From: a virus
DNA: 64,000 nt
Virus record (IMG/VR): IMGVR_UViG_3300036766_001333
Span: 13,881-77,880 of that record
Reading direction: 5' to 3' (one strand)
The translations under genes were made by a program, and so were the position numbers. This document shows, one piece after another, positions 13,121 through 57,889 of this stretch; within the stretch, counting starts at the first letter, position 1, and each line of letters opens with the position of its first letter. Below the pieces are notes generated by a model. It did no database searches, was not told the origin of the DNA, and saw only the letters and a program-made list of their open reading frames with translations.

Positions 13121-14104
13121 ATGGTTAACAAAGTTTCTTCACACACACCAGGATACAAACACGGTATCCTCTCTGTATTTCCGCATGGTAAAGACAGTAA
13201 ACTAACTTTATACGAAGCCAAAAATAATGCTGAAACCACTTTAAAACAAAGTCTATCCTTAAACAGTAAATATATAATTTTAGAAGACGCCAATAACTTT
13301 CCAGACACAGGATTAATTAAAATAAATTTAGATAATAAAGAGTCTTCAGAGGTAGTATATTATGCAAGGAAAATAGGAAATCAACTTCACTCACTTCACA
13401 GGGCATTCAATGGATTCAAGCAAAGTAACTGGCCTGCTGGCAGTAAAGTTTCATGCCCTGTAATGGCTGACCACCATAATGCTCTAAAAGATGCCATTAT
13501 AAAAATTCAGAAAACCTTAGGATTAGCAATAAATCCAGACTCAGAATCAATAAACAGACATTTAAAGAAGTTAGAAAACAAATGGTTGTCTCCAAAAATT
13601 GCTTTTAAAGCCTATCCAACATCAGGATCAGCACCATTAACTGTTAGATTTCAAAATTTTTCTGGAGGCTATGGCACGAAATTCTTATGGGATTTTGGAG
13701 ACGGACAGACCTCCATAGAGAAAAATCCCACTCACATTTTCGAAAATGAAGGTATTTATAGAATTAAATTAAATCTAATGTCGGCAAACAACGCACATGG
13801 ATTAGCAGAAAAGCCAAATTACATAGAAGTAAATAATTCAATATTTCCATCATATTTCTATGGTTATCCGAAAGAAGGACAAATTGGAACAGAATTCACT
13901 TTTGTAGATCAAACTCAAGGAGATGTGCTTGAAAGACATTGGTTTTTTACAGATGGATGTGACGAAACAGTATCAAATCCAGATATCCATACTATAAATC
14001 ATATTTTTAATAAGACAGGCTTTTATATGCCTCAATTAATGGTCAGAATGAAAAATGGAAAAATAAGAACAATAAATATATTAGAAGGAGTAAATGTATT
14101 ATGA
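13121..14104 (+). CDS. PKD-domain virion protein (paralog 1)
   Basis: GSAPLTVRF...WDFGDG...NPTH PKD motif plus a second degenerate PKD. Confidence 0.8.
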   Translation: MVNKVSSHTPGYKHGILSVFPHGKDSKLTLYEAKNNAETTLKQSLSLNSKYIILEDANNFPDTGLIKINLDNKESSEVVYYARKIGNQLHSLHRAFNGFKQSNWPAGSKVSCPVMADHHNALKDAIIKIQKTLGLAINPDSESINRHLKKLENKWLSPKIAFKAYPTSGSAPLTVRFQNFSGGYGTKFLWDFGDGQTSIEKNPTHIFENEGIYRIKLNLMSANNAHGLAEKPNYIEVNNSIFPSYFYGYPKEGQIGTEFTFVDQTQGDVLERHWFFTDGCDETVSNPDIHTINHIFNKTGFYMPQLMVRMKNGKIRTINILEGVNVL

Positions 14105-42584: not shown

Positions 42585-45500
42585 ATGGCGTGGACAGATT
42601 TTTTTAAGCTTTTTAATAGTACCTTTACATTAGACCCATTATCTAAAAAATCAGATAGAAAAAATCTACCAAGCGCAGGCGTATCATCAAATGATGTTTT
42701 TCCTGATCCTAGAAATACTGATAGCTTATCTTCTGGGACAGGCGGCTTCATAAGAGTACAAAACGATTTAGTCGATCTTACAACTACAACTAATCGAGTA
42801 AACCGATATAAAGAATATGATAGATTAGTTGCAAGTATATCTGAAATTGAAATGGCAATGACAGTATTTGCCGATGAAGCTTGCGTATATGAAGATACAA
42901 TCATAAATACAGTCTTTCATGGCCCTAAAACCATTAAATGGCTACAACAAAATAAAACAGATGATAAGTTTCCAGTATATTGTTATGACTTTAAAAAAGA
43001 AGATTATACAGTTGGATGGTCCTATGCTCCAAGATTTGTTAAAAAAGCAAAAACCGTAAGGGTTATTCTTGATAATGGAGAAATAGAAATAGTAACTCCA
43101 GATCACAGAATACTAAGAAAAGATGGCGAATGGATAATGGCAGAAAATTTAAAGTTTGGTGATAAATTAATGCCATTTTACAAAATAAAAGCAAATCAAA
43201 ATTTAACTAAAGTTAAAACTAAACAATTTCCAAGAATTTTTACACATAATAAAGGCTGGATACATGAACGTCAATTTTTAGATGAATGGAGAAGTGGGAA
43301 AGATTTACCAGAATATGAAAAAGTAAACAAATTAGGCAGATTGCTAGCCCAAAAACTTCATGTAAAAGATATCGCAAAATTAATGGGAGTCGCAGCACCT
43401 ACCCTTGAATACCAGTTATCAAGTGAAGGATTTAGCTGTAAAGAATTCAGGTTATTATCTAAAAACTTATCTTACAGAAGGGTAATCAAAGTAGAACCCT
43501 GGCATGAATTAGATGTATATGATTTGTCTGTAGAAGATCATAAAAACTTTTGCACTCAGTCTTTAGTAATGCACAATTGTCAAAAAGATGAAGATGGACA
43601 AGTTTTCAAAATAACATGCAAAAATCAAGATGTAAAAGAAGAATTAGAAACTTTATTCTTTAAAGTCCTAGAATTCGATCAATTGAATATTTGGGATAAA
43701 GCTAAAAGACTATTCATAAAAGGAGATGCATTTTGGGAAATAGTAGTAGACCCGGATAATCCAAAAGATGGAATTCTAAAGATTGCCGATTTGCCCCCAG
43801 ATAATATGTATAGAATCGAATCGACTAAAGGCAAAGTTCTTGAATATCAACAAGCAAAAGAAGGTCCAGATTATCAGGCTTTACTAAAAGCTCCATTAGG
43901 AATGGCTACTGATAATGAATTAGCACAGTCTATGGCCATTAGATTTACCCCTGACCAAATCATACATTTAAGAATTGGAGATTATAGAAAATCCTTTTAT
44001 CCATATGGCGTTAGTTTAATAGAACCAGCCAGAGGACCAGCCCATCAATTAAAAATGATGGAAGATAGTATGGTCGTATATCGACTTTGCCTTGCTGGTA
44101 ATACTAGAATTAGAACGGCAGATTATTATAAGTATATTAAAGATTTAGATATTGGCGATATTGTTTATAGTTTCTCCGAATCTGGCAAACAAATGCCAAC
44201 GACAGTAGAAGCTGTTAAAAATAATGGAAAGCAAAAAGTTTATGACGTTATTTCTAGGCATGTAAGTATTCGTGGTAATGAAACGCATCCAATTTTAGTT
44301 AACAGAGATGGCGTCTATCAATATGTTGATGTTAAGAACTTAATTCCTGGTAAAGATAAATTTATATTAACCACTAAAGATGTTGGATTTATTCCTAGTA
44401 TTCCAAGGATTTACGGACCAATGTGGGCTAAGCTTAATGACGAAGCTAGAAAAGAATTTAAAAATAAACGCTTTAAAAACAAATCTCAACTAATGAGGCA
44501 ATGTTCTTCTGAATTTGGAAGAGTAAGACAATTCTTATATACTAAAGGTAAAGCATTGCCTTTAGAAAGAGCCAAAGAAATATGTAATATATTTGGCATA
44601 GATGAATCCAAATTATTGCTAGTTAATAAAGGGGAAAATAATTCTGAAAGAATAAGTTTACCTGAGCGAGTCACTGAAGAATTTGCTAAGTTATTTGGTT
44701 TTATTTGTGGTGATGGGTCTATTCATAACAACAATCAAATTTCATTTTCTTCTTCAGAAGACGACCAAATAAATCAATATTATTCTGGACTACTTCAAAA
44801 GTATTTTGGAAAGGTAAGATTCGAGTTAGATAAAAGATCAAAAAAGAAATTAGGCAAATTTGTATCTGATTCTACAACTGCATGTAAAGTATTTGGTGCT
44901 ATGGGATACATTCATAATCACCACAACACGAGAATACCAAAATGGGTGTTTAATTCTCCTAAAAATATTCGACGAGCATTCGTTGAAGGGTTGTCAGATG
45001 CAGATGGATGTGAGCGATTTACCAAGAAAGGCACTTGGTTTTCTACAATTGAATTGTGTAATGAGAAACTAATAGAAGACATTAAAGAATTATGGTCTTC
45101 TATTGGGCTTTGTTCAGGACAGTTAAAGAAAAGGACAAGAGAAAATAAGCACTTATTACTTGGTAGAAAGCTACCTGTAAAAACCACTTCTTATTTGGTT
45201 ACTATTAGTGATAATTTATTACCTAAAGAAGAAAATATAACAAAAGTAGTAGAGGTTGGAGAGGAAGATGTATATGACATCACTGTGAATTCTAATTATC
45301 ATAATTTTATAGCTAATGGCATTCCAGTTCACAATACAAGAGCGCCTGAGCGTAGAATATTTTACATAGACATCGGTGGTCTTCCCAGCTTTAAAGCTGA
45401 AGCTTTCATTAACAGAATGAAAGATCAGTTTAGGAAGAAGAAGATGACTCATAATATGAATAATAGTACGACTGGAGCTTCGGCTGTAGATGAAAGATGG

Positions 45501-46364
45501 CACGCTCCAGCCGTAGATGAGGATATTTGGATTCCAGTAAGACAAAATTCAACTACAAGAATAGACACTTTACCTGGCGCACAAAACTTAGGAGAAATAG
45601 ATGACACAGTTTATTTCAGAACCAAGTTATTTGCCGCACTTAACTTTCCACCTAACTACTTCTACTCACAAGATGCAAATGCTACTAGAATTACACTTTC
45701 AGCGAATGATGTAAAATTTGCCAAGTTAATAGAAAGATTACAAGCTTATATGGAATATGGCTATAAAGAAATAGCCATAAGACACTTAAAATTAATAGGT
45801 TATCCAGAAAATACATTTGAAGACATAAAAATAAAGATGACGCCACCTTCTGATTGGCGAGAATTAAGTCGAGCAGAAGTCATAACAAATAGAATTAATA
45901 ATGCTAATTCTCTTAAAGGCTCCCAATTGTTATCTGATTATGATATCTTAACAAAATGGATGAAATACCCAGAAGATGAAGCAAAAGAAATGATAGCTAG
46001 AATGAAAATTCAAAAATTAGAAGACTTAAAGCTTCAAGTTCTAGCTCAAAATCCTCAATTGCTTGGCGTTGGCATTCCAGGTATGGGCGAACAAGAAATT
46101 TCAGCACAGCCAGGCGGTCCTAACCCAATGCTAGGTCCAGATCAACAAATGCCACCAGGAGGTCCACCAGCAGGCCCAGAAGGTCCGCCACCTGAAGTTG
46201 CACCACAATCAATGGAGAAGTCTGAACCGGCACCTGAACCGCAATCTCAGGCCAAACCGTTACCTAATCCAACAGATGATGATATTATTAAATACGATCT
46301 TGAACTTCAGGACTACGATCAGGATCAAGATTATGAAGAACCTGACTATAGTGAAGGAGAATAA
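42585..46364 (+). CDS. Portal protein (T4 gp20-like) with two inteins; about 611 aa after splicing
   Basis: RYKEYD, YGVSLIE, MEDSMVVYRL/TRAPERRIFYIDIG, EDIWIP, IDTLPG motifs. Confidence 0.95.
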   Translation: MAWTDFFKLFNSTFTLDPLSKKSDRKNLPSAGVSSNDVFPDPRNTDSLSSGTGGFIRVQNDLVDLTTTTNRVNRYKEYDRLVASISEIEMAMTVFADEACVYEDTIINTVFHGPKTIKWLQQNKTDDKFPVYCYDFKKEDYTVGWSYAPRFVKKAKTVRVILDNGEIEIVTPDHRILRKDGEWIMAENLKFGDKLMPFYKIKANQNLTKVKTKQFPRIFTHNKGWIHERQFLDEWRSGKDLPEYEKVNKLGRLLAQKLHVKDIAKLMGVAAPTLEYQLSSEGFSCKEFRLLSKNLSYRRVIKVEPWHELDVYDLSVEDHKNFCTQSLVMHNCQKDEDGQVFKITCKNQDVKEELETLFFKVLEFDQLNIWDKAKRLFIKGDAFWEIVVDPDNPKDGILKIADLPPDNMYRIESTKGKVLEYQQAKEGPDYQALLKAPLGMATDNELAQSMAIRFTPDQIIHLRIGDYRKSFYPYGVSLIEPARGPAHQLKMMEDSMVVYRLCLAGNTRIRTADYYKYIKDLDIGDIVYSFSESGKQMPTTVEAVKNNGKQKVYDVISRHVSIRGNETHPILVNRDGVYQYVDVKNLIPGKDKFILTTKDVGFIPSIPRIYGPMWAKLNDEARKEFKNKRFKNKSQLMRQCSSEFGRVRQFLYTKGKALPLERAKEICNIFGIDESKLLLVNKGENNSERISLPERVTEEFAKLFGFICGDGSIHNNNQISFSSSEDDQINQYYSGLLQKYFGKVRFELDKRSKKKLGKFVSDSTTACKVFGAMGYIHNHHNTRIPKWVFNSPKNIRRAFVEGLSDADGCERFTKKGTWFSTIELCNEKLIEDIKELWSSIGLCSGQLKKRTRENKHLLLGRKLPVKTTSYLVTISDNLLPKEENITKVVEVGEEDVYDITVNSNYHNFIANGIPVHNTRAPERRIFYIDIGGLPSFKAEAFINRMKDQFRKKKMTHNMNNSTTGASAVDERWHAPAVDEDIWIPVRQNSTTRIDTLPGAQNLGEIDDTVYFRTKLFAALNFPPNYFYSQDANATRITLSANDVKFAKLIERLQAYMEYGYKEIAIRHLKLIGYPENTFEDIKIKMTPPSDWRELSRAEVITNRINNANSLKGSQLLSDYDILTKWMKYPEDEAKEMIARMKIQKLEDLKLQVLAQNPQLLGVGIPGMGEQEISAQPGGPNPMLGPDQQMPPGGPPAGPEGPPPEVAPQSMEKSEPAPEPQSQAKPLPNPTDDDIIKYDLELQDYDQDQDYEEPDYSEGE
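42882..43577 (+). mobile_element. Intein 1 (232 aa, no LAGLIDADG)
   Basis: ADEA|CVYEDT...VTPDHRIL...VYDLSVEDHKNF...MHN|C. Confidence 0.9.
44088..45335 (+). mobile_element. Intein 2 (416 aa) with LAGLIDADG homing endonuclease
   Basis: VYRL|CLAGNT...NETHPIL...FGFICGDG...FVEGLSDADG...VYDITV...VHN|T. Confidence 0.95.
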
Positions 46365-46735
46365 TGAATAAAAAATTTCTAGATGAAGCGATGCAACTTG
46401 AAAAACATTGGGCAAAATTCCCAAATTTATTCCCAAAAATGAAAGAAGGCCAAGTTCTTTTAGAGTCACAAAGACTTCGTAATGAATTTGATGTAGGCCA
46501 TGCTGGATTCTATGCAATTCATAATAGACTAAATCTAGAAAAAGTTAATAAATGTGGATGCTATCACTGTTTAACCATGTTTGACCCAAAAGAAATCAAA
46601 GAATGGGTTGATAATGATGACACAGCTATGTGCCCTTATTGTGAAATAGACTCAGTTATTCCAGAAAATACAGATTATTTTTTAAGCAAAGAACTTTTGA
46701 CCAAAATTAATGAACATTATTTTAAACAGGATTAA
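46364..46735 (+). CDS. Chimeric protein: major-capsid-propeptide-like N-terminus plus CGCxxC...CPxC Zn-finger domain
   Basis: FLDEAMQLEKHWA...VLLESQRLRNE matches the MCP N-terminus; TAATG coupling to the portal gene. Confidence 0.75.
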   Translation: MNKKFLDEAMQLEKHWAKFPNLFPKMKEGQVLLESQRLRNEFDVGHAGFYAIHNRLNLEKVNKCGCYHCLTMFDPKEIKEWVDNDDTAMCPYCEIDSVIPENTDYFLSKELLTKINEHYFKQD

Positions 46736-46994
46736 TTGTATCAGCAGCAGCAGGGACAACAATATCTGCCTCTTTATCTGAATCCGGCTTGTTGCTTACC
46801 GCTCCCTGATCCCTATATTTCTTCAATTCTTCGGCAATTTGCTCATCTTTTCTAGCCAAACTTCTAAAAAGCTCCACTATTGCATCTCGGTGACGCATAA
46901 CTGCCATCTGCGCAATGTTATTCAATATTTCATCTGATTCAAGATCGGCACAGGCTTCACTTCTTTGTTGATAATATTGCCGAAAACTTTTCAT
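46722..46994 (-). CDS. Small putative internal/prohead-core protein (MKSFRQYY leader)
   Basis: GAGGAG SD; TATAGATA upstream on the minus strand. Confidence 0.6.
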   Translation of the reverse strand: MKSFRQYYQQRSEACADLESDEILNNIAQMAVMRHRDAIVELFRSLARKDEQIAEELKKYRDQGAVSNKPDSDKEADIVVPAAADTINPV

Positions 46995-48900: not shown

Positions 48901-48961
48901 ATTTTTATTTCAAAAAACAACTATATAACCAATAGATATTTTGTTGCAAAGGAATCAATAT

Positions 48962-49642
48962 ATGAATCAAACTGTAATGTTATTAGAAGATTGTTGCGAC
49001 GGCACTTGTTTATTTGTAGACCTTAATGAATCCAATGTTGAAAAAGGTTTAATAAAATTTAGAGGTAAATTTCAAGAAGCCGAAGCTGTAAATAAAAACA
49101 AAAGAATGTATCCGTTTGCTGTTCTCGATGAGAATGTGCAAAAATTAACAGAGGTTGTAAAAGCCCGTGGATTAGTAGGCGAACTCGATCACCCAACTGA
49201 TTCTATTATCCATTTCAAAGAAGCATCACATATTATTACGAAATTAGTATGGGAAGGAAATATTCTTAATGGCGAAGGAGAAATTCTTAATACAGCACAT
49301 GGCAGACAATTAAAAGCATTAATTAGTGATGGAGTAAGAGTTGGTATTAGTAGTCGTGGTGTTGGTAATGGAAAAGTTAATGAAAATGGAATCCTTGTAA
49401 TTAGTGAAGGTTATAAATTAATTACATTTGATGCTGTAGCTGATCCCTCAACATTTGATGCTTATCAGCAACGTGTAACTGCTGCTAAAAGAGAAAATGT
49501 AATAGTTCCAAAAAATTTTGAAGATTATGTTACAAAAAATGAAACTAAGCGCATAGATAAAATAAGTAAAGAAGCAGTAGTAGCTGCTTTTAGTGGAATT
49601 ATTAAAGAACACAAAGATAAAATTTTAGAGAGGTTAAAATAA
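48962..49642 (+). CDS. Prohead protease (T4 gp21-like)
   Basis: NKNKRMYP, GELDHP, SHII, GISSRGVG, TFDAVADPS motifs; ATG 48962 with AAGGA SD. Confidence 0.95.
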   Translation: MNQTVMLLEDCCDGTCLFVDLNESNVEKGLIKFRGKFQEAEAVNKNKRMYPFAVLDENVQKLTEVVKARGLVGELDHPTDSIIHFKEASHIITKLVWEGNILNGEGEILNTAHGRQLKALISDGVRVGISSRGVGNGKVNENGILVISEGYKLITFDAVADPSTFDAYQQRVTAAKRENVIVPKNFEDYVTKNETKRIDKISKEAVVAAFSGIIKEHKDKILERLK

Positions 49643-49643
49643 A

Positions 49644-50558
49644 ATGAGTAAAGTTATCGAAGCCCTTAAGAAACTCCTTCCTGAAGAAAATCTTACTGAA
49701 GTAGCTTCTACAGTTGAAGGCATGCTGTCTGAGGCTAAGCAAGAATTAGAAACCGAGTTTAATAAGAAACTTGAAGAAGCTTACTCAGAATTAGCAAACG
49801 AATTAACCAACGCAGAAAAAACTGCTGTTGAAGGTTACGAACAAGCCTTTTCAATTATAACCGATCTTCGTAATCGCATTGATACTCAGAAGACCGAAAT
49901 GGAAAAGGTAATGTACACAGGTTTCGAAGAAGCATATCAAATGATCGAAACCGAAAAGAAAAAGACCAGTTCTCTTGAAGTAGATGTATATGACGAATAT
50001 GACAAGAAACTTCAAGAAATGACAGAATATATTGTTGATCGTGTTGACGCTTTCTTGCAAGAGAAGGGCGCTGAAATTTATGAACAAGCCAAGAAAGACG
50101 TTCTTAATGACCCACGTATGGCGGAACATAAAGTCGCTTTAGACAAGATCGTAGACATCACTGCTACCTATCTATCAGACGAAGATATGCACCTCGCTAC
50201 TTCCAGTAAGTTAGAAGAAGCTAGCAAGAACATCGAACACTTGAATGCTCAGATCAAGATGATGGAAGCTCGCAGTATTAGACTTGATAATGAAAATCGT
50301 AAACTCAACGAATCAGTTCGCAAGAGTGCAGAAATGCTTAATGAGAACAAAGTTGTTGAGAAGAAAGAAAAAGTACAGAAAGCCAAGAATGTATCGGGGA
50401 GAGGGCATGTAGTAACAGAAGAAACCGTTGTTATTGCGGAACATAACAACAAGGACGCTACAGCCAATAAAGTAGAAGATACCGATGTATTAGTAGAAGG
50501 TTTAGGAATGGATAAAGAAACCCTAAACGCTTTAGCTGGTACACAGAAAGCAAATTAA
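49644..50558 (+). CDS. Prohead core scaffolding protein (gp22-like)
   Basis: Acidic coiled coil between protease and MCP with many (L/I/V)xE sites. Confidence 0.85.
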   Translation: MSKVIEALKKLLPEENLTEVASTVEGMLSEAKQELETEFNKKLEEAYSELANELTNAEKTAVEGYEQAFSIITDLRNRIDTQKTEMEKVMYTGFEEAYQMIETEKKKTSSLEVDVYDEYDKKLQEMTEYIVDRVDAFLQEKGAEIYEQAKKDVLNDPRMAEHKVALDKIVDITATYLSDEDMHLATSSKLEEASKNIEHLNAQIKMMEARSIRLDNENRKLNESVRKSAEMLNENKVVEKKEKVQKAKNVSGRGHVVTEETVVIAEHNNKDATANKVEDTDVLVEGLGMDKETLNALAGTQKAN

Positions 50559-50589: not shown

Positions 50590-52059
50590 ATGAATGCTAA
50601 TGCTAGATTTTTAAATGAAGCCCGTGAATTAGAGGGCAAATGGGCAAGAACAGGTTTGCTCGAAGGTATTGGGGACTACGACAAGAAGGGCGTATTCAAA
50701 GAGAACAAACATGATCGTGCTGCTGCTGCCGTCTTGTTCGAGAACCAAAGACTTATGAATGAAGTCTCCACCGATACTGGCGATATTGCACAGTTCAAGA
50801 GAATTTCTATTCCTCTTGTCCGTAGAATTTATCCTCAGTTAATCGCCAATAAGATCGTATCAGTACAGCCACTCTTAGGCCCAACTGGTTTGGTCTACTA
50901 CCTTCGTTTCCGTTATTCAAGTAACAAGGGTAGCGTTCGTGGTATGGATAATAACGGTGGCTTCCCAGGTGATGATGTAAACTCATTGATGCAGGGTGCA
51001 GATGGTACAGCACACCTCTCAAATATGTATTCTTCACAATTTGTGGAGAACGAAACTACCAGCACAGACCCAGGCGTAATCGCTATTGCAACATACGCCC
51101 CTCTCGAACACACACCAGTTCTCCCAGGAACTATGACTGGTACAGTGTTTGATGGCGCAGTCGCAATTCAGACTTTCACCGTGTCTGCTAGCACTGGTAC
51201 TTTCACCTTCAACCCAGCCGCTCCTGCTGGCGCTCATGCCACAGCCGGTTCTCTTAATGTTACAACTGGTGAAGTAACTATTACTTGGTCCGCTCCTGCT
51301 GGCCCAAATCATTTAGTTACAAGCTACGAATATAATATGGAATGCAATCAAGATTTACCAGAAATTAATCTTGTGGTCGAAAGTGAGGACATTACTGCTA
51401 AGACTCGTAAGTTGAAGGCAGTTTGGTCATACGAAGCTCAGCAAGACCTTCGCTCTCAGCACAATCTTGACGCTGAAGCCGAATTAACAGCAGTCCTTGC
51501 TCAAGAAATTAACCTTGAAATCGACCGTGAAGTATTAACCGACCTTCGTAATAATGCCGGTACAGTAGCAGCTTGGGATTACGCAACTGCCCTTGGCGAA
51601 ACCGTTAAGGAAAAGTATGAATCCCTCTATGTAAAAGTTGTAGAAGTAAGTGCAGTTATTCACAGAAAGACCTTACGTGGTGGTGCAAACTGGATCGTAA
51701 CTTCCCCTGAAGTTGCATCTATCTTTGAAACCGCAACAGCCGGTTTTGCTCCTGCACCTTCTGAAACTTTCACAAGCAGCTTGGGCATTCAGTATGTAGG
51801 CACAGTAAACAACCGTTGGAGATTATATAAAGACCCACTCTTCCTTACTAACCAAATCTTAATGGGTTATAAGGGTGATTCTTATATGGACTCTGGATAT
51901 TTTTACTGCCCATACGTTCCTCTTACTCAAACTCCAGTTGTTCTCGATCCTGAGAGCTTCTGCCCACGTAAGGGAATTTTAACTCGATACGGCAAGAAAT
52001 TATTGCGTGAAGGAGCCAAGTTCTACGCAAGAATGACAATTGCTAATTTTGTGATATGA
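50590..52059 (+). CDS. Major capsid protein (T4 gp23-like)
   Basis: PLVRR, VSVQP..GPTG, AKTRKLKA.W..E..QDL, EINLEIDRE, YCPYVPL, TRYG motifs. Confidence 0.97.
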   Translation: MNANARFLNEARELEGKWARTGLLEGIGDYDKKGVFKENKHDRAAAAVLFENQRLMNEVSTDTGDIAQFKRISIPLVRRIYPQLIANKIVSVQPLLGPTGLVYYLRFRYSSNKGSVRGMDNNGGFPGDDVNSLMQGADGTAHLSNMYSSQFVENETTSTDPGVIAIATYAPLEHTPVLPGTMTGTVFDGAVAIQTFTVSASTGTFTFNPAAPAGAHATAGSLNVTTGEVTITWSAPAGPNHLVTSYEYNMECNQDLPEINLVVESEDITAKTRKLKAVWSYEAQQDLRSQHNLDAEAELTAVLAQEINLEIDREVLTDLRNNAGTVAAWDYATALGETVKEKYESLYVKVVEVSAVIHRKTLRGGANWIVTSPEVASIFETATAGFAPAPSETFTSSLGIQYVGTVNNRWRLYKDPLFLTNQILMGYKGDSYMDSGYFYCPYVPLTQTPVVLDPESFCPRKGILTRYGKKLLREGAKFYARMTIANFVI

Positions 52060-57694: not shown

Positions 57695-57889
57695 ATGAAA
57701 AACTTTTGGTTAGATCAACTCCGAATAGGGAGATGTGTTAAATATAATGGACCTGACATTGCGATTCAGGGATTGATTGGCATGGTTACTAATATACTAA
57801 ATTCATGGGTAAATGTAACCTTTATTAAAAAAGGAAATAGCATAACTGTTACTGTAGAAAAAGAATATTTAGAAATAATACGAAATTAA
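57695..57889 (+). CDS. Small KOW/SH3-like protein
   Basis: IGRCVKY.G....GLIGMV pattern. Confidence 0.45.
   Translation: MKNFWLDQLRIGRCVKYNGPDIAIQGLIGMVTNILNSWVNVTFIKKGNSITVTVEKEYLEIIRN

Follow-up and report, generated by a model that had tools for sequence, protein, structure and literature searches.

A relative of the major capsid propeptide at the N-terminus of a zinc-ribbon protein encoded behind the portal gene of an uncultured huge phage

What does a piece of the capsid propeptide do on a small protein that is not a capsid protein? The question is raised by ORF123, an open reading frame (ORF) directly behind the portal gene in a stretch of 64,000 nucleotides (nt) of virus DNA (the window; positions 13,881 to 77,880 of IMG/VR record IMGVR_UViG_3300036766_001333). 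Its first 41 residues resemble the N-terminus of the major capsid protein (MCP), and the remainder is a zinc ribbon. The window is part of a 77.9-kb contig from a sediment metagenome, and the phage is uncultured. A previous sequence-only reading had suggested that the propeptide was co-opted as an address tag, which brings a cargo into the prohead and frees it on maturation. Judged from our comparisons, ORF123 is an accessory zinc-ribbon protein, usually encoded directly after the portal gene in this clade, plus an acquired module homologous to the MCP propeptide. We consider it about an even chance that this module acts as a capsid-targeting, protease-removable leader of the kind known from phage T4 as the capsid-targeting sequence (CTS).

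The window carries a T4-type head module on the plus strand. Its nearest named record is LR756511, a 595-kb uncultured phage with an MCP that is 79.5% identical. IMG/VR contains 341 relatives of the window MCP; of these, 80 were kept, on contigs of up to 533 kb. The window therefore belongs to a clade of huge phages. A contig built by a second assembler from the same sediment sample contains the whole stretch without differences, which is not independent evidence. The features of ORF123 and its counterpart in the MCP are as follows (aa, amino acids).

46364..46735 (+): ORF123, leader plus zinc-ribbon protein, 123 aa (stop codon included)
46356..46359 (+): GGAG ribosome-binding site in the 3′ end of the portal gene, 4 nt ahead of the ORF123 ATG
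46364..46486 (+): ORF123 leader, residues 1-41, copy of the MCP-propeptide module; predicted helix-linker-helix
46376..46414 (+): leader block 1, residues 5-17 (F-L-D-E-A...W-A), with invariant F5, L6, E8, A9, W16
46454..46486 (+): leader block 2, residues 31-41 (V-L-L-E-S-Q-R-L-R-N-E), with invariant E34, Q36, R37, L38, N40, E41
46487..46732 (+): zinc-ribbon domain, residues 42-123, 'cytoplasmic protein' family, phrog_30788
46559..46570 (+): first CxxC knuckle (C66, C69), columns invariant in 39 family members
46631..46642 (+): second CxxC knuckle (C90-P-Y-C93), columns invariant in 39 family members
50590..50763 (+): MCP leader, residues 1-58, relative of the ORF123 leader; aligns weakly with T4 gp23 propeptide residues 8-41

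The leader and its attachment to ORF123

As the sequence-only reading had described, the leader matches the MCP N-terminus in two blocks, with 8 of 13 and 8 of 11 residues identical to MCP residues 7-19 and 48-58, respectively. BLASTP aligned ORF123 residues 2-41 with MCP residues 4-58 at an E-value of 2e-5. The similarity also held up against shuffled controls: the Smith-Waterman score was 61 compared to a mean of 24.6 (standard deviation 3.7), and none of 5000 shuffles reached 61, whichever partner was shuffled. Among 552 six-frame segments of the 77.9-kb contig the best non-self match of the leader was the MCP, and in all of about 80 related loci the leader matched the N-terminus of the MCP. 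The match sits at the extreme N-terminus in both proteins. The following domain had been called unrelated to the MCP, and in agreement with this ORF123 residues 42-120 showed no MCP similarity and matched phrog_30788 at 3e-19. ORF123 gave no PF07068 match; the leader alone resembles the MCP. The coupling to the portal gene was likewise recovered, as the ATG of ORF123 and the portal stop have one base in common (TAATG) and the GGAG lies within the 3′ end of the portal gene.

In an AlphaFold2 (AF2) model of ORF123 the leader forms helices at residues 3-16 and 30-39, with block-mean predicted local distance difference test (pLDDT) values of 66-83 over the first 40 residues, and the 10-residue block means of the zinc domain were 92-98 (residues 41-120). 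The AF2 model of the MCP was poor overall (pLDDT 43); its leader was modelled as helix-linker-helix at pLDDT 67-79, which is weak evidence. When the MCP leader of the clade was compared to T4 gp23, it aligned with residues 8-41 at a weak hhalign E-value of 0.005 (W, LLEG and FENQ motifs).

A leaderless zinc-ribbon gene follows the portal gene in 44 related loci (34 distinct sequences; ORFs of 79-110 aa). That stand-alone homologs lack the leader, as the address-tag proposal implied, was borne out by a hidden Markov model (HMM) of the leader, which found nothing in these 44 loci. In 65 metagenome loci the zinc domain was nearly always stand-alone (about 80-120 aa) and carried the leader in none. 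The earlier claim that the added part ends exactly at E41 also stood, because in a protein alignment M1 of the leaderless proteins lies opposite F42 of ORF123 with no gap. The same GGAGAATAATG junction is present in L002, the closest leaderless relative with DNA. From the M1/F42 alignment and this common junction we conclude that the leader is an exact N-terminal addition of 41 residues.

Elsewhere, a full leader on the zinc ribbon was found only in P0002 (among about 15 billion proteins), which is 73% identical to ORF123. P0002 is a separate database sequence with a JGI source label, comes from a different contig (6.7 kb) and has the same architecture. In P0003, the sister of P0002, the leader is collapsed to about 14 residues, M-N-E-N-F-L-D joined to G-Q-R-L-R-N-E-F. 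In the zinc-domain tree the window protein, P0002 and P0003 form one clade (support 100/99) with the leaderless L002 as sister. This topology indicates that the fusion is a derived state that arose by a single gain, followed by the collapse in P0003.

As to the origin of the leader, no DNA-level similarity to the 5′ end of the window's own MCP gene was found, so the leader is not a recent self-duplication. Compared with its own MCP leader the ORF123 leader gave 46%, and compared with the MCP leaders of other phages 46-53%.

Two minor points concern the joints of the gene. We had considered that E41 is codon 2 of the ancestral gene via a TAATGAA/TAATGGAA microhomology, and dropped this because the ancestral M1 aligns gaplessly opposite F42. 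The linker between the blocks (46415-46453, ORF123 residues 18-30) contains N-L-F-P-K, and M-I-N-L-F-P-K is the N-terminus of leaderless zinc-ribbon proteins in another subclade (L029 8010-8252; L118 5372-5611; L135 5511-5753). This coincidence may be chance or the trace of a more complex origin.

Conserved positions and other copies of the leader

The ORF123 leader was aligned with 13 MCP leaders and two non-MCP copies (L084, L100). Eleven columns were invariant, namely the residues listed above for the two blocks in ORF123 numbering. All 11 are also kept in P0002 and, by eye, in P0140. Between ORF123 and P0002, 13 of 42 leader positions differ, none of them in the 11 invariant columns (P = 0.008), and the linker has drifted. 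The invariant set includes two motifs of the T4 gp21 type, L-x-E then A and L-L-E then N, G or S, which in ORF123 are L6-D7-E8 in block 1 and L32-L33-E34 in block 2. In addition, F7-L8-x-E10 of the MCP leaders and P0002 is in register with the T4 CTS decapeptide, which we verified in the T4 record. Position 35 is N in every MCP and S in ORF123; in the full-length non-MCP copies (ORF123, P0002, P0003, L084, L100, L157 and the first copy in P0140) it is G or S.

Further non-MCP fusions were searched for by running a leader profile against 15 whole records of relatives plus the local loci. This gave a second fusion, a 98-aa ORF of L157 (1351-1647, minus strand), which has the leader at its extreme N-terminus and, like ORF123, S at position 35. 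Its cargo is a different small CxxC...CxxC zinc ribbon that is unrelated to that of ORF123. The ORF is found immediately downstream of an MscL-like gene and 137 kb away from the MCP, in the complete, 532,729-bp IMG/VR record behind L079.

Leader minigenes without globular cargo were present in L084 (14888-15085) and L100 (12653-12847, minus strand), both beginning with M-K-N-[YH]-W-L. A further minigene family (L159, L173 and the frameshifted L165) combines a partial leader with a D-E-E-Y tail. P0140 is a chimera in which the leader and another block 2 are joined to a segment similar to the N-terminus of the prohead protease. It came from a library-wide HMM search in which the profile included zinc-domain columns of P0002 and zinc-family matches filled the list. 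A leader-only profile gave 606 matches among longer proteins, and with one exception the top 120 are PF07068 proteins. When viral contigs were scanned with the non-MCP leaders, and again with the L157 protein, nothing but the queries was recovered.

The G or S at position 35 of the non-MCP copies, together with the L-R-N-E-F that L165 and ORF123 have in common, suggests that the ORF123 leader probably came from a free leader minigene of the clade and not from the MCP gene. Calling the leader a copy of the MCP propeptide, as had been done before, is thus right as to homology, but probably not as to the donor.

The start of the L084 and L100 minigenes recurs in other genes. At least nine unrelated small ORFs of the clade start with the hexapeptide M-K-N-[YHF]-W-L (window 57695-57889; L100 12656-12847 and 12900-13124, both minus strand; L084 14888-15082; L142 12308-12523 and 12523-12759; L083 12718-13296; L070 1931-2236, minus strand; L001 4782-4907). 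Since the codons vary synonymously and the upstream DNA is unrelated, the hexapeptide is conserved as a peptide, and it has the look of a further portable tag at the N-terminus, comparable to the T4 CTS.

Pieces of other head proteins also occur in small ORFs. In three relatives such ORFs lie 4-11 kb downstream of the MCP, each with a head-protein fragment (L100 10097-10354 and 10539-10799; L084 15574-15783; L077 21040-21285). The fragments are MCP residues 422-485, MCP residues 256-314, an MCP C-terminal piece and an N-P-Y motif like that of p588, a protein of the head module (see below). All these ORFs end in a common tail, [KR]-Y-R-S-I-D-D-x-W. L102 and L090 have weaker MCP-fragment matches downstream, without the tail, and in the window's contig no ORFs with head-protein fragments were found.

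A possible capsid-targeting leader and its alternatives

The possible function of the leader has to be considered together with the other genes of the head module.

42585..46364 (+): portal gene (gp20-like, 1259 aa, two large insertions), 52-82% identical to the portals of L029, L002 and L001
47091..48857 (+): 588-aa protein (p588), encoded after ORF123 and before the protease; no family match
48941..49642 (+): prohead serine protease (Peptidase_S77, family of T4 gp21); Pfam PF03420 at 9e-26, phrog_207 at 2e-46
49644..50558 (+): helical scaffold-like protein at the T4 gp22 position, assigned by position and conservation; no family match
50590..52059 (+): MCP, Gp23 family; Pfam at 4e-86, with matches to T4 gp23 structures

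In T4, the CTS brings unrelated proteins, foreign ones included, into proheads, and gp21 removes it (PMC3012670; PMC9958956; PMC5694885). Within the CTS decapeptide, residue 7 is important for targeting, whereas processing involves residues 8 and 10 (PMC9026906). For ORF123 we infer core binding, packaging, cleavage and cargo fate as follows. The two conserved leader helices would engage the same prohead-core partner as the MCP propeptide, and the ORF123 protein would co-assemble inside the prohead. The presumed partner of both leaders is the scaffold-like protein, to which they would bind. The S77 protease, encoded 2.2 kb downstream of ORF123 in the same head module, is the presumed processing enzyme of the leaders and would cut at conserved glutamates, with E8, E34 and E41 as candidates. 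What such a cut would release is a zinc-ribbon protein of nearly the same extent as the leaderless form, and the released cargo may be ejected with the DNA.

This reading, which we put at about one in two, explains the exact architecture of a tag plus a native protein, the conservation of the MCP-invariant residues and the L-x-E motifs, the place of the gene in the head module beside the S77 protease, and the independent second fusion to another zinc ribbon. In these points the address-tag idea of the sequence-only reading was supported. It stood less well with respect to E41, at which cleavage had been thought plausible, as E8 and E34 agree better with the T4 L/I-x-E rule. The homology does end at E41, which is invariant, but the residue at its P3 position varies. 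The mature N-terminus of T4 gp23 would align near MCP residue 44, which favours neither E51 nor E58 of the MCP.

Several observations weigh against a targeting leader. The invariant Q-R-L-x-N-E misfits the T4 rule of L or I at P3, which makes a cut at E41 uncertain. The architecture is rare (about 15 billion proteins contained two full copies and a collapsed one), and the zinc-ribbon gene is absent after the portal gene in L084, L112 and L145. A third carrier of the motif was not found in the 77.9-kb contig; since only the MCP and ORF123 carry it, no multi-cargo tag family is visible there. Moreover, leader-like copies without globular cargo exist (L084, L100, L159, L173, P0140), some with the leader away from the extreme N-terminus, and these cargo-less copies suggest that the leader itself can be the functional part. 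A predicted complex of the scaffold-like protein with the leader scored 0.00 and gives no verdict either way.

The cargo-less minigenes keep alive the alternatives of a modulator, a decoy or an auxiliary core protein. It is possible, if unlikely, that the leader competes with the MCP propeptide for a partner (scaffold, protease or host sensor) and that the zinc ribbon is secondary. Such a protein would modulate head assembly or poison it, for instance in co-infecting relatives, or would soak up the protease or capsid-sensing host defences. The cargo-less or chimeric leader minigenes in relatives (L084, L100, L159, L173, L165, P0140) and the small ORFs with other MCP fragments nearby would fit this role. 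G or S at position 35 in place of the MCP N could reflect altered cleavage, the ORF123 leader resembles its own MCP leader no more than the MCP leaders of other phages, and host cyclic-oligonucleotide-based antiphage signalling systems (CBASS) have been reported to sense prohead-protease activity (PMC12991175). However, in ORF123 and L157 the leader occupies the extreme N-terminus with a well-folded domain behind it, which is the layout of a tag with its cargo. Zinc domains within the leader-bearing clade also stay conserved (73-76% identity), and a defence-related context around the gene was not found. A wider form of this idea, which we regard as quite unlikely, takes the MCP propeptide as a free-living module. 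Its copies and other head-protein pieces (MCP middle, MCP C-terminus, protease N-terminus and p588 motif) would circulate as minigenes and fusions and act as molecular mimics, with ORF123 as a mimic that has a zinc-ribbon effector. In mixed infections the mimics would then regulate or poison capsid assembly in trans; alternatively, they would serve as decoy substrates for host sensing of the capsid or its protease.

We are similarly doubtful that ORF123 is a minor component of the prohead core or of nucleation at the portal vertex, co-translated with the portal protein like T4 gp67 and degraded at maturation, not delivered. The leader would then tie the zinc-ribbon protein to the first capsid and scaffold subunits. 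The gene matches T4 gene 67 in position, in overlapping the portal stop by one base and in size without the leader (79-81 aa), and it follows the portal gene in 44 related loci. On the other hand, no sequence resemblance to gp67 was seen when the two were read side by side, the loci without the gene after the portal (L084, L112, L145) mark it as accessory, and the occurrence of the family in bacteria and in the tail module of a small siphovirus argues against a dedicated role in head assembly. Least probable, in our view, is a neutral or transient fusion in which illegitimate recombination placed a leader minigene before the zinc-ribbon gene and the leader is functionless there. The rarity of the architecture, the collapsed leader of P0003 and the fact that the other chimeras are each singletons would all be compatible with it, and the similar ribosome-binding-site and start contexts of both genes (GGAG...AATATGAAT) would ease recombination. 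It is difficult to reconcile, however, with a leader that persists over about 27% protein divergence (window compared to P0002) with the MCP-invariant positions intact while the linker drifted (P = 0.008), and with a reading frame and a start codon that are kept.

Known propeptides, the zinc-ribbon family and neighbouring genes

The T4 CTS is borne by IPI, IPII, IPIII and Alt (Mullaney and Black 1996, as reviewed in PMC3012670, PMC9958956, PMC9026906). Like the ORF123 leader, it is an N-terminal addition to otherwise unrelated proteins of a phage with an S77 protease and ends in glutamate motifs, which in ORF123 are candidate cut sites, and it has F-[IL]-x-E at positions 7-10 in common with the MCP leaders and P0002. 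The expected outcome would be alike as well, namely loading into the prohead core and then removal. In contrast to the CTS of 10-19 residues, the ORF123 leader has 41 residues and two helices, is homologous to the MCP's own propeptide, and has one cargo per genome so far. The 65-residue propeptide of T4 gp23 (delta piece) is lost through gp21 cleavage (PMC9958956), and it is its residues 8-41 that align with the MCP leader of the clade. In T4 it is known on gp23 only, whereas the copies of the clade are found on other proteins and as free minigenes.

The product of T4 gene 67 is a core protein that is degraded by gp21 (PMC9958956). Its gene resembles the zinc gene of ORF123 in following the portal gene directly, with an overlap of one base, and in coding for about 80 aa. 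When the translations were read side by side (no alignment was run), gp67 was helical with an acidic tail, had no cysteines or zinc site and did not resemble ORF123. The zinc-ribbon gene is dispensable in some relatives. In SPN3US and phiKZ, long propeptides of head and ejection proteins were inferred to target proheads and to be removed by a T4-related protease (PMC5694885). These have other cleavage motifs (A/S/G-x-E) and are not described in that work as copies of a capsid leader.

Cleavable capsid-targeting propeptides are thus established in T4 and inferred in giant phages. The architecture had been noted before as one without a known description; the principle is known, and it is the origin from an MCP propeptide that looks undescribed, as we found no description of a targeting-type leader paralogous to the MCP's own propeptide in the literature searched. 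In encapsulin cargo-loading peptides and engineered P22 scaffold fusions, the cargo is carried inside by a short peptide with affinity for the inner side of an HK97-fold shell or for its scaffold. These peptides are usually C-terminal, uncleaved and not derived from the propeptide of the shell protein.

How proteins are placed in the scaffolding core of T4 'remains mysterious' according to a review (PMC9958956). Here, a 41-residue part of a T4-type capsid propeptide has been naturally transplanted onto two or more small proteins that are not related, with leaderless sister genes as controls. Should the module target cargo, the MCP and internal proteins can use the same core-binding signal, and the signal-bearing part of the propeptide would be pinpointed to two helices with 11 invariant residues. 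It would also provide a longer and possibly stronger natural tag for loading T4-type capsids. The uncharacterised zinc-ribbon family, which is spread widely among bacteria, phages and giant viruses, is in this way flagged as a candidate packaged protein.

That family is automatically annotated as 'cytoplasmic protein' and occurs in these three groups; no Pfam or NCBIfam family was found for the zinc domain. C66, C69, C90, C93 and D96 are invariant in 39 family members (CxxC...CPxC and a D-S-V motif). The zinc domain had an atlas structure match with a template modelling (TM) score of 0.91, Foldseek against the PDB gave only weak, generic matches to zinc-ribbon or rubredoxin-like structures, and the matches in BFVD were uncharacterised giant-virus proteins. 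Bacterial contexts of the family are heterogeneous. In L055 (7494-8258), a bacterial-looking contig, the zinc gene is the next one after a gene for an Imm-NTF2-2 immunity protein, a single case that does not suffice for assigning a function. In L149 (5974-6228; Blautia phage NatCom_2932), a 58-kb siphovirus, its place is in the tail module, with the major tail protein on one side and the tape measure on the other.

Some further observations concern the neighbours of ORF123 in the window. Both portal insertions are present in L029, and the second (query residues 517-917) is absent from L001 and L002. The C-terminus of p588 has repeated W/Y-P-G-L-T-N-P-Y motifs, and its relatives are 40-50% identical; from its location p588 is a candidate core protein at the position of T4 gp68. 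Finally, the last 14 nt of ORF123 are shared, tail to tail, with a 90-aa minus-strand ORF (46722-46994). This ORF has a conserved counterpart in LR756511 (L001 11070-11417, E-value 6e-13) and represents a reverse-strand gene within an otherwise forward head operon.

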